From NCBI RefSeq assembly GCF_003334255.1, contig NZ_QOWU01000273.1: 287 nucleotides of DNA, one strand, 5' to 3'. Shown here piece after piece: positions 1 through 287 of the stretch. This DNA comes from Escherichia coli (lineage in GTDB: Bacteria; Pseudomonadota; Gammaproteobacteria; Enterobacterales; Enterobacteriaceae). Every line of letters starts with the position of its first letter. The stretch's first letter is position 1. Below the pieces are notes generated by a model. It was not told the origin of the DNA, made no database searches, and was given only the letters and a program-made list of their open reading frames with translations. The translations under genes were made by a program, and so were the position numbers.

Positions 1-248
1 CGGTTTTTGTGTTGCGTGCTGATGTGGTTAGAATGTTGCGAATTAATATCACCTGGCAACTGGTGATTGTCTGCATAGTCAACGGTGAAGGAGAAAGCCC
101 CGTATGTGGTGACGCTGCGGGCAGCCTGTTTACAGGCGCGGCGGTAATAGTCGTGCCAGTTGTTCAGGCGGGAAGCCAGCAGGGGATCCACCGCCCACAT
201 CCAGTTAAAGAAGTCCTGAATATCTGAAAGTCCCTTAACGCTCTTCAT
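1..248 (-). CDS. Hypothetical protein, N-terminal 82 codons (3' end outside the window). Translation: MKSVKGLSDIQDFFNWMWAVDPLLASRLNNWHDYYRRACKQAARSVTTYGAFSFTVDYADNHQLPGDINSQHSNHISTQHKN...
   Basis: Seen in sequence: reverse complement of 246..248 is ATG, followed by 81 further sense codons with no stop through position 3 (positions 1-2 are the first two bases of the next codon). GGAGG sits 5 nt upstream of the ATG. Codon choice is enterobacterial-like (CTG x3, CGC x4, AAC, GAC, TTC, ACC, and only one AGA/AGG/ATA/CTA-class rare codon), and by my hand count about 53 of 82 codons end in G or C against roughly 50% overall GC. The ORF was absent from the supplied track, presumably because it has no stop inside the window. 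Product unknown: no recognisable Walker, HTH, CxxC pair, signal peptide or transmembrane segment. The true start could lie upstream, since the frame stays open to position 287. Confidence 0.75.
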   Translation of the reverse strand, partial: MKSVKGLSDIQDFFNWMWAVDPLLASRLNNWHDYYRRACKQAARSVTTYGAFSFTVDYADNHQLPGDINSQHSNHISTQHKN

Positions 249-253
249 GAGAA

Positions 254-258
254 CCTCC
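254..258 (-). promoter_or_regulatory. Shine-Dalgarno / ribosome-binding site (GGAGG) for the minus-strand CDS
   Basis: Seen in sequence: plus-strand cctcc at 254..258 reads GGAGG on the minus strand; the context is CCGGAGGTTCTCATG, with a 5-nt spacer (TTCTC) to the ATG at complement 246..248. This is a perfect core match to the anti-SD complement at acceptable, slightly short spacing. Caveat: if the ORF continues in-frame from upstream, this is just codons CCG-GAG-GTT. Confidence 0.5.
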
Positions 259-287
259 GGTAACAGACGTGCGGAAGCCTCCCGCGC

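Follow-up and report, generated by a model that had tools for sequence, protein, structure and literature searches.

Position and features of the window

The window, that is, the whole stretch of 287 nucleotides of Escherichia coli DNA analysed here, corresponds to positions 8001..8286 of the SCU-172 locus (L001), with 100% identity over 286 bases; window base 287 differs from L001. It sits in a P88-like (Xuanwuvirus, Peduoviridae; P2-like) E. coli prophage which, in L001, is located beside dmsA and carries terminase, portal, gpA replication endonuclease and integrase genes. P88 is the nearest sequenced phage to this prophage, the link being made through the neighbouring 73-aa protein (82% identity); the window DNA itself found no match among sequenced phages in a distant-mode search. 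All the early genes adjoining the window lie on its minus strand, on which the early operon comprises, in this order, an isrK-type RNA, a C4 antisense RNA, a 73-aa epsilon-like derepression protein, a 138-aa protein and gpA. The single-copy form of the region (window 78..287 only) also occurs in two E. coli "plasmids" of PLSDB, CP061233.1 and CP061270.1, of 1.0 and 1.2 Mb, which, given their size, are probably chromosome fragments filed as plasmids. The features recognized in the window are the following:

1..77 (L001 8830..8906), no strand: duplicated intergenic DNA, defined by alignment of the two copies
1..23, minus (ORF at L001 7406..8023): beginning of a 205-aa "ash family protein" ORF, start codon ATC at 23..21, as given in a GenBank record (P0037)
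9..227, plus: spurious chimeric ORF of 72 aa with a GTG start; codons 1-23 are intergenic, and the remaining ones lie antisense to the gene stub in codon alignment
77..78 (L001 8077|8078), no strand: duplication junction, defined by alignment of the two copies and by a single-copy relative
78..248, minus: 57-codon 5' stub of a phrog_3237-family gene, supported by a profile match and a pN/pS of 0.17
246..248, minus: ATG start codon of the stub, read from the sequence
254..258, minus: Shine-Dalgarno (SD) sequence GGAGG, separated from the ATG by 5 nt (TTCTC) and duplicated from the ribosome-binding site (RBS) of the 138-aa gene
259..287, minus: part of the spacer that separates the SD of the stub from the upstream 73-aa gene (whose stop, at L001 8317, lies beyond the window), from annotation and alignment

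No Rfam-type RNA was found inside the window itself.

A 5' stub of a phrog_3237-family gene on the minus strand

An earlier note, made from the letters of the window alone, had placed the real gene on the minus strand on account of a canonical ATG, a perfect GGAGG at 5-nt spacing, preferred codons and a raised GC content at third codon positions (GC3). These signals were all recovered: the ATG occupies 248..246 and the GGAGG 258..254, with TTCTC between them, the GC3 of the minus frame is 0.65 overall, and the codon-usage log-odds, trained on the other genes of the prophage, reach +16.3 bits for the minus frame versus -3.7 bits for the plus frame. What had been beyond the reach of that note is that the coding signal ends at window 78, and that 77|78 is the junction of a duplication. 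Within the window, the minus ORF counts 82 codons and remains open to the edge; its GC3 is 0.72 over codons 1-57 and 0.48 over codons 58-82, and no coding signal could be detected in window 3..77, where codon scores are about 0 in both frames.

In a comparison of nine loci, which represent only about 3 to 4 independent lineages, pN/pS was 0.17 in the minus frame versus 1.06 in the plus frame, and the variable sites of 78..248 were distributed as 8/5/16 over minus-frame codon positions 1, 2 and 3. This establishes the minus strand as the strand of selection, and the pattern of synonymous-site variation in the plus frame that, according to the earlier note, would have spoken for the plus peptide is absent.

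The source of the stub lies close by. An intact copy of the gene, encoding a 138-aa protein (WP_000843718.1), is present at L001 7003..7419, 829 bp downstream of the stub; it is preceded by the same SD (L001 7425..7429) and overlaps the start of gpA. The membership of the stub in this family is established by the phrog_3237 profile, which matches the intact protein with an E-value of 7e-52 and residues 7-57 of the ORF that starts with the stub with an E-value of 3.8e-17. Only positions 1-53 of the 129 in the profile are covered by the stub, so that the domain is not represented at full length. The stub shares 96-100% identity with the N-termini of phrog_3237/WP_000843718.1 family members and has their FxxWxW..P.L motif. 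It differs from them in that it is not adjacent to gpA and in that the rest of its ORF is unrelated sequence: the intact copies overlap or abut gpA in 9 out of 9 loci, whereas the stub has its place 829 bp upstream of that position, with a second isrK/C4 unit after it.

At 90% identity, the homologues of the minus-strand protein fall into 33 clusters, at 50% they are reduced to 17 representatives, and relatives of the 138-aa protein were traced down to 22-37% identity, among them the syntenic P88 gp15. Conserved, diverged homologues were thus found for the minus translation only, the plus translation yielding two near-identical clusters. Two residues, F13 and D57, never vary in the alignment, and W18, P22 and L24 hardly do; all five are encoded in the window. 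D51, which is conserved in the family, is replaced by A in the stub. The 138-aa protein is predicted to adopt an H-H-E-E-E-E-H-H fold, i.e. two helices, a four-stranded meander and two helices (pLDDT 80.8), and on this model the cut at residue 57 would fall inside the domain, after the first strand, leaving the stub with two helices and one of the four strands.

No NCBIfam or Pfam family matched the 138-aa protein (in NCBIfam, 0 of the 5 proteins tested found a match), a sequence search of the PDB returned nothing significant, and fold searches gave nothing convincing. Similarly, a tblastn search of the 138-aa protein against sequenced phages found no match, the gene being known only from prophages. 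The P4 protein ORF151 was considered as a counterpart, being encoded at an equivalent position, and was rejected as there is no similarity between the two. A Cys/Gly-rich metagenome representative of 813 aa (P0163), with some six tandem repeats of about 90 residues, aligns in five stretches with residues 44-109 of the 138-aa protein (E 1.8e-7); the match may come either from a related beta-meander or from composition.

An 829-bp tandem duplication with its junction inside the window

In L001, two tandem copies with a period of 829 bp, 7249..8077 and 8078..8906, differ at 6 of 829 positions, and the segment corresponding to the duplicated unit is found once, at 2747..3575, in the single-copy relative L003. 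The duplication is thereby established. The duplicated piece begins shortly before the isrK promoter and ends at codon 57 of the 138-aa gene, and no microhomology is visible at the junction 77|78. Using a junction probe (window 30..125), we found the junction complete in 4 of 5426 complete E. coli genomes, namely SCU-172, STEC2018-607, G6/7 and G8. A fifth genome, G1/2, has the same junction together with a 79-bp deletion just beyond it, and the remaining 60 of the 65 genomes with the 138-aa gene have the region in single copy. A megablast count, according to which 25 genomes covered 80% of the window, was discarded, since it joined non-colinear pieces from single-copy genomes; with the junction probe, the number is 4.

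The stub of the window, which departs from the intact copy in its own genome by D51A and one synonymous change, is shared without a difference by three junction genomes, which places the duplication in a single event. A draft assembly (P0156, L012) also contains the junction, with a stub of a different allele (RSITTSGD, D51 intact), and in STEC2018-607 (L002) the intact 138-aa gene (7003..7419) differs from the stub (8078..8248) at 8 or more of 171 positions. Given these mismatches between stub and intact alleles, the duplication has therefore been passed around by recombination, and the duplicated region appears, from the alleles compared, as a mosaic between lineages. The two repeat copies of G1/2 are only 94% identical to each other, which suggests later recombination with another phage. 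The deletion in this genome (L004, around position 2500) corresponds to L001 ~7987..8064, that is, to window 1..64 plus about 14 nt to the left; the internal isrK promoter thereby loses its -35 box, and the reading frame of the stub is shifted.

Open reading frames created by the junction

On the minus strand, the ORF that starts with the stub is 280 aa long in its full context (L001 7406..8248). Past codon 57, it runs through intergenic DNA and the isrK and C4 RNA genes and then through the 73-aa gene in the wrong frame. It is intact in four genomes, with a strong SD. Several observations bear on its tail: (i) in the tail frame, pN/pS amounts to 1.33 for the RNA region and 1.46 for the 73-aa gene, as against 0.33 in the true frame of that gene, (ii) in L005, compensating +1/-1 indels about 180 nt apart scramble the amino acids and leave the nucleotides nearly identical, and (iii) in G1/2, the 79-bp deletion swaps the tail of the stub entirely and produces an ORF of 122 aa. 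The placement of the real gene on the minus strand, as put forward in the earlier note, thus stands in so far as the coding constraint over 78..248 belongs to that strand and the plus ORF is a non-functional shadow; it does not extend to the minus ORF as such, which is a 57-codon duplicate fused at 77|78 to intergenic DNA and RNA genes.

A shorter frame of this kind is annotated as well. The 205-aa "ash family protein" ORF (PF10554; 638 clusters) coincides exactly with the isrK and C4 genes, and is also matched by PHROG families labelled "transcriptional regulator"; from the sequence comparisons, it is probably not a real gene. If the ash frame encoded a genuine protein, the 280-aa ORF would be a true fusion; this possibility was rejected on the grounds of the L005 frameshifts and of pN/pS values of 1.3-1.5. 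A "DNA-binding protein" annotated in L005 was likewise considered as a long frame over C4 and dismissed, as it is located upstream of isrK and is unrelated. In the RefSeq record of P4 (L013 8168..8584), a CDS named "cI gene product (AA 1-137), transcriptional repressor" lies over the C4/CI RNA. The PF10554 "Ash" family, which a survey of P4-like satellites took as the marker of epsilon (PMC8628076), may represent a translated RNA gene.

The plus ORF (9..227) has, as had been described, a GTG start, no SD and a length of 72 aa, and the rare codons listed for it are present in exactly the stated numbers (AGA, 1; CGA, 1; ATA, 2; GGA, 2; GTA, 2). It shares the triplet register of the minus frame, and its TGA stop at 225..227 is the antisense of Ser8 (TCA) of the stub. 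In this register, stops of the plus frame can come only from TTA, CTA or TCA codons of the sense strand. The expectation that a long shadow ORF would arise here was borne out: in 17 genes of the same prophage, TTA, CTA and TCA together make up 2.76% of codons, which gives a probability of about 0.25 that 50 codons contain no stop, and among the antisense stop-free runs of these genes 17 of 110 were at least 50 codons long. A stop-free antisense run as long as that of the plus ORF is expected by chance.

The warning that automated calls would put the gene on the wrong strand also proved justified. In several genomes, RefSeq (PGAP) carries a hypothetical protein, WP_162861635.1, which corresponds to window 33..227 on the plus strand, its counterpart in G1/2 being WP_187027798.1. 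At this locus, the calls of PGAP comprise the plus shadow ORF and the two 73-aa genes; in those of another gene-calling pipeline, the 280-aa chimera appears on the operon strand and the second 73-aa gene is lost. The plus peptide matched no family in PHROGs, NCBIfam or Pfam, and among 5.8 billion proteins it retrieved two near-identical clusters only, which are 96% identical versions of the junction ORF; the plus-ORF cluster has 36 member sequences. The ORF occurs only in junction-carrying genomes and is absent from the single-copy phage. Since its first 23 codons (9..77) are antisense to no coding sequence, it exists only because of the junction. Taking the frame comparisons together, both the 280-aa ORF and the plus ORF are chimeras created by the junction, and neither is under selection at the protein level.

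Antisense, codon-aligned shadow ORFs are a textbook gene-finding artefact. The plus ORF resembles them in using the register of the real frame, in having no RBS and no homologues, and in its pN/pS near 1. It differs from them in having been created by a rearrangement and not merely tolerated opposite a gene.

In the single-copy phage, the DNA of window 1..77 is a spacer that separates the isrK promoter from a divergent phrog_6315 gene, of which it forms a non-conserved upstream extension, homology beginning downstream of it. Because this spacer stretch opens both the extended phrog_6315 frame and the plus ORF, PGAP chooses an identical ATG at the two sites. PGAP gives the phrog_6315 gene three different starts, all on the plus strand: L001 8922..9386 (154 aa), L002 8862..9386 (174 aa) and L003 3408..4055 (215 aa). 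The phrog_6315 profile and a 34%-identical relative favour the shortest form, and the longest overlaps isrK on the opposite strand.

The duplicated unit resembles the immunity modules of P4 and P1

The presence of the RNA genes is established by Rfam: in both repeat copies, outside the window, C4 scores 82.8 bits (gathering threshold, GA, 45) and isrK 64-66 bits (GA 50). The 73-aa protein matches the Pfam family PF25738, "Derepression". The promoter of the module is sigma-70-like (TTGCCA-18-TACATT), with a -35 box that begins 2 nt to the left of the window. In an alignment of L003 and L005-L010 on the minus strand, from the isrK promoter to the 73-aa gene, three short patches located in isrK, in C4 (as the reverse complement) and before the SD of the 73-aa gene change together, and define five specificity types in these seven loci. 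Examples of co-varying patches are TTTCGCAG/CTAGCAAAG, ATTGCAAC/CAACTACAG and TTTCCAC/CTACGCACG. By their sequence, the five patch types look like heteroimmunity types of the C4 system in P88-like prophages. Co-varying specificity patches are a known logic of the c4 genes of P1 and P7, whose immI region comprises c4, icd and ant.

The immunity region of the satellite phage P4 consists of an isrK-type leader, the CI/C4 RNA, epsilon, ORF151 and alpha, and both Rfam families are also recovered in P4, where they are ordered as in the module. The module described here has in common with P4 the isrK, the C4 (CI RNA) and the PF25738 derepression protein, as well as its location upstream of a replication gene. 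It differs in its host element, which is a P2-like phage of the helper type with gpA and not a satellite with the alpha primase; moreover, unlike in P4 and P1, the whole module is present here twice in tandem, outside the window or at its edge. By analogy with these systems, C4 would gate the derepression protein, the downstream 138-aa gene and gpA, the duplication would put two such gates one after the other, and a doubled C4 module may affect immunity. With the isrK-orf45-anrP region of Gifsy-1 in Salmonella (PMC4825925), the module shares isrK, a region conserved in nucleotides and not in amino acids, and a gene of the anti-repressor type. The downstream protein is nevertheless a different one, 73-aa and epsilon-like here and AnrP in Gifsy-1.

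Discussion

We consider it very probable that the window represents the junction of an 829-bp duplication in a P88-like prophage, with the stub of a phrog_3237 gene on its minus strand and a spurious ORF on its plus strand. In this scenario, the 829-bp piece would have been doubled head to tail by illegitimate recombination in a small lineage, and the window would span the resulting junction, window 78..258 corresponding to the RBS and the 57 codons of the upstream, truncated copy and window 1..77 to the start of the second unit. The stub would have been fused by chance, in frame, to a stop-poor frame over isrK, C4 and the 73-aa gene, giving the ORF of 280 aa. On the opposite strand, a frame beginning at start codons of the intergenic piece would continue into the stop-poor, codon-aligned antisense of the stub, and thus yield the 72-aa plus ORF. 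The stub itself would be transcribed and translated within the operon, and its product is presumed to be non-functional.

The most serious competitor, which we nonetheless judge quite improbable, takes the minus ORF as a complete functional gene, encoding either a 280-aa fusion protein or, with the N-terminal stub alone, a small protein. Its intact ATG and strong SD would fit such a gene, as would a 280-aa ORF that is open in both L001 and L002, a tail frame that is open in all loci examined, and the call made on the operon strand by another pipeline. However, the family match is limited to residues 1-57, with an intact 138-aa copy 829 bp downstream in the same genome, and the cut falls inside the predicted domain of a stub in which the conserved D51 has become A. 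The tail, moreover, overlaps isrK and C4, is out of frame over the 73-aa gene, has a pN/pS of 1.3-1.5, and is replaced by a wholly different one in the 122-aa ORF that results from the 79-bp deletion of G1/2. Still less credit can be given to the plus ORF (9..227, or 33..227 in RefSeq) as a real small gene: its 64-72 codons without a stop, and the annotation of WP_162861635.1 by PGAP in several genomes, have to be set against the lack of an SD, the lack of any match in PHROGs, NCBIfam and Pfam, the two near-identical clusters among 5.8 billion proteins, a pN/pS of 1.06 and a codon score of -3.7 bits, for an ORF which is confined to junction genomes and whose stop-free run is of a length expected by chance.

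Repeats of about 0.8 kb can be mis-assembled, and it is conceivable that the tandem repeat is an assembly artefact and that the sequence of the window is absent from nature. This we hold to be exceedingly improbable. Complete genomes from three laboratories, in the USA, Switzerland and Germany, contain the junction, as does a separate draft assembly, and the plus-ORF cluster has 36 members. Between the copies there are 6 differences in L001 and a divergence of about 6% in G1/2, unlike in collapsed or expanded repeats; we rule out an artefact because of these copy and allele differences and of the independence of the three laboratories. A real duplication may also be more than neutral debris, in that two C4/isrK/epsilon-like modules before gpA would alter immunity or induction, and ribosomes from the strongly initiated stub ORF would cross the second promoter and the RNA genes; the later 79-bp deletion of G1/2, with its loss of the internal -35 box, could then be a compensatory adjustment. 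We regard this as unlikely, although less so than the readings weighed above.

The phenomena met at this junction, namely shadow ORFs, tandem duplication and a C4-type immunity module, are all already known, and the plus ORF in RefSeq is an ordinary annotation artefact. The main value of the finding therefore lies in annotation hygiene. WP_162861635.1, and WP_187027798.1 in G1/2, are spurious RefSeq proteins on the wrong strand, the 280-aa chimera of the other pipeline swallows two RNA genes and a real 73-aa gene, and neither pipeline flags the element as a partial duplicate. At a rearrangement junction, the question of which strand the gene is on can be the wrong one to ask. For the biology of these prophages, a wider consequence would follow only if the doubled immunity module alters lysogeny.
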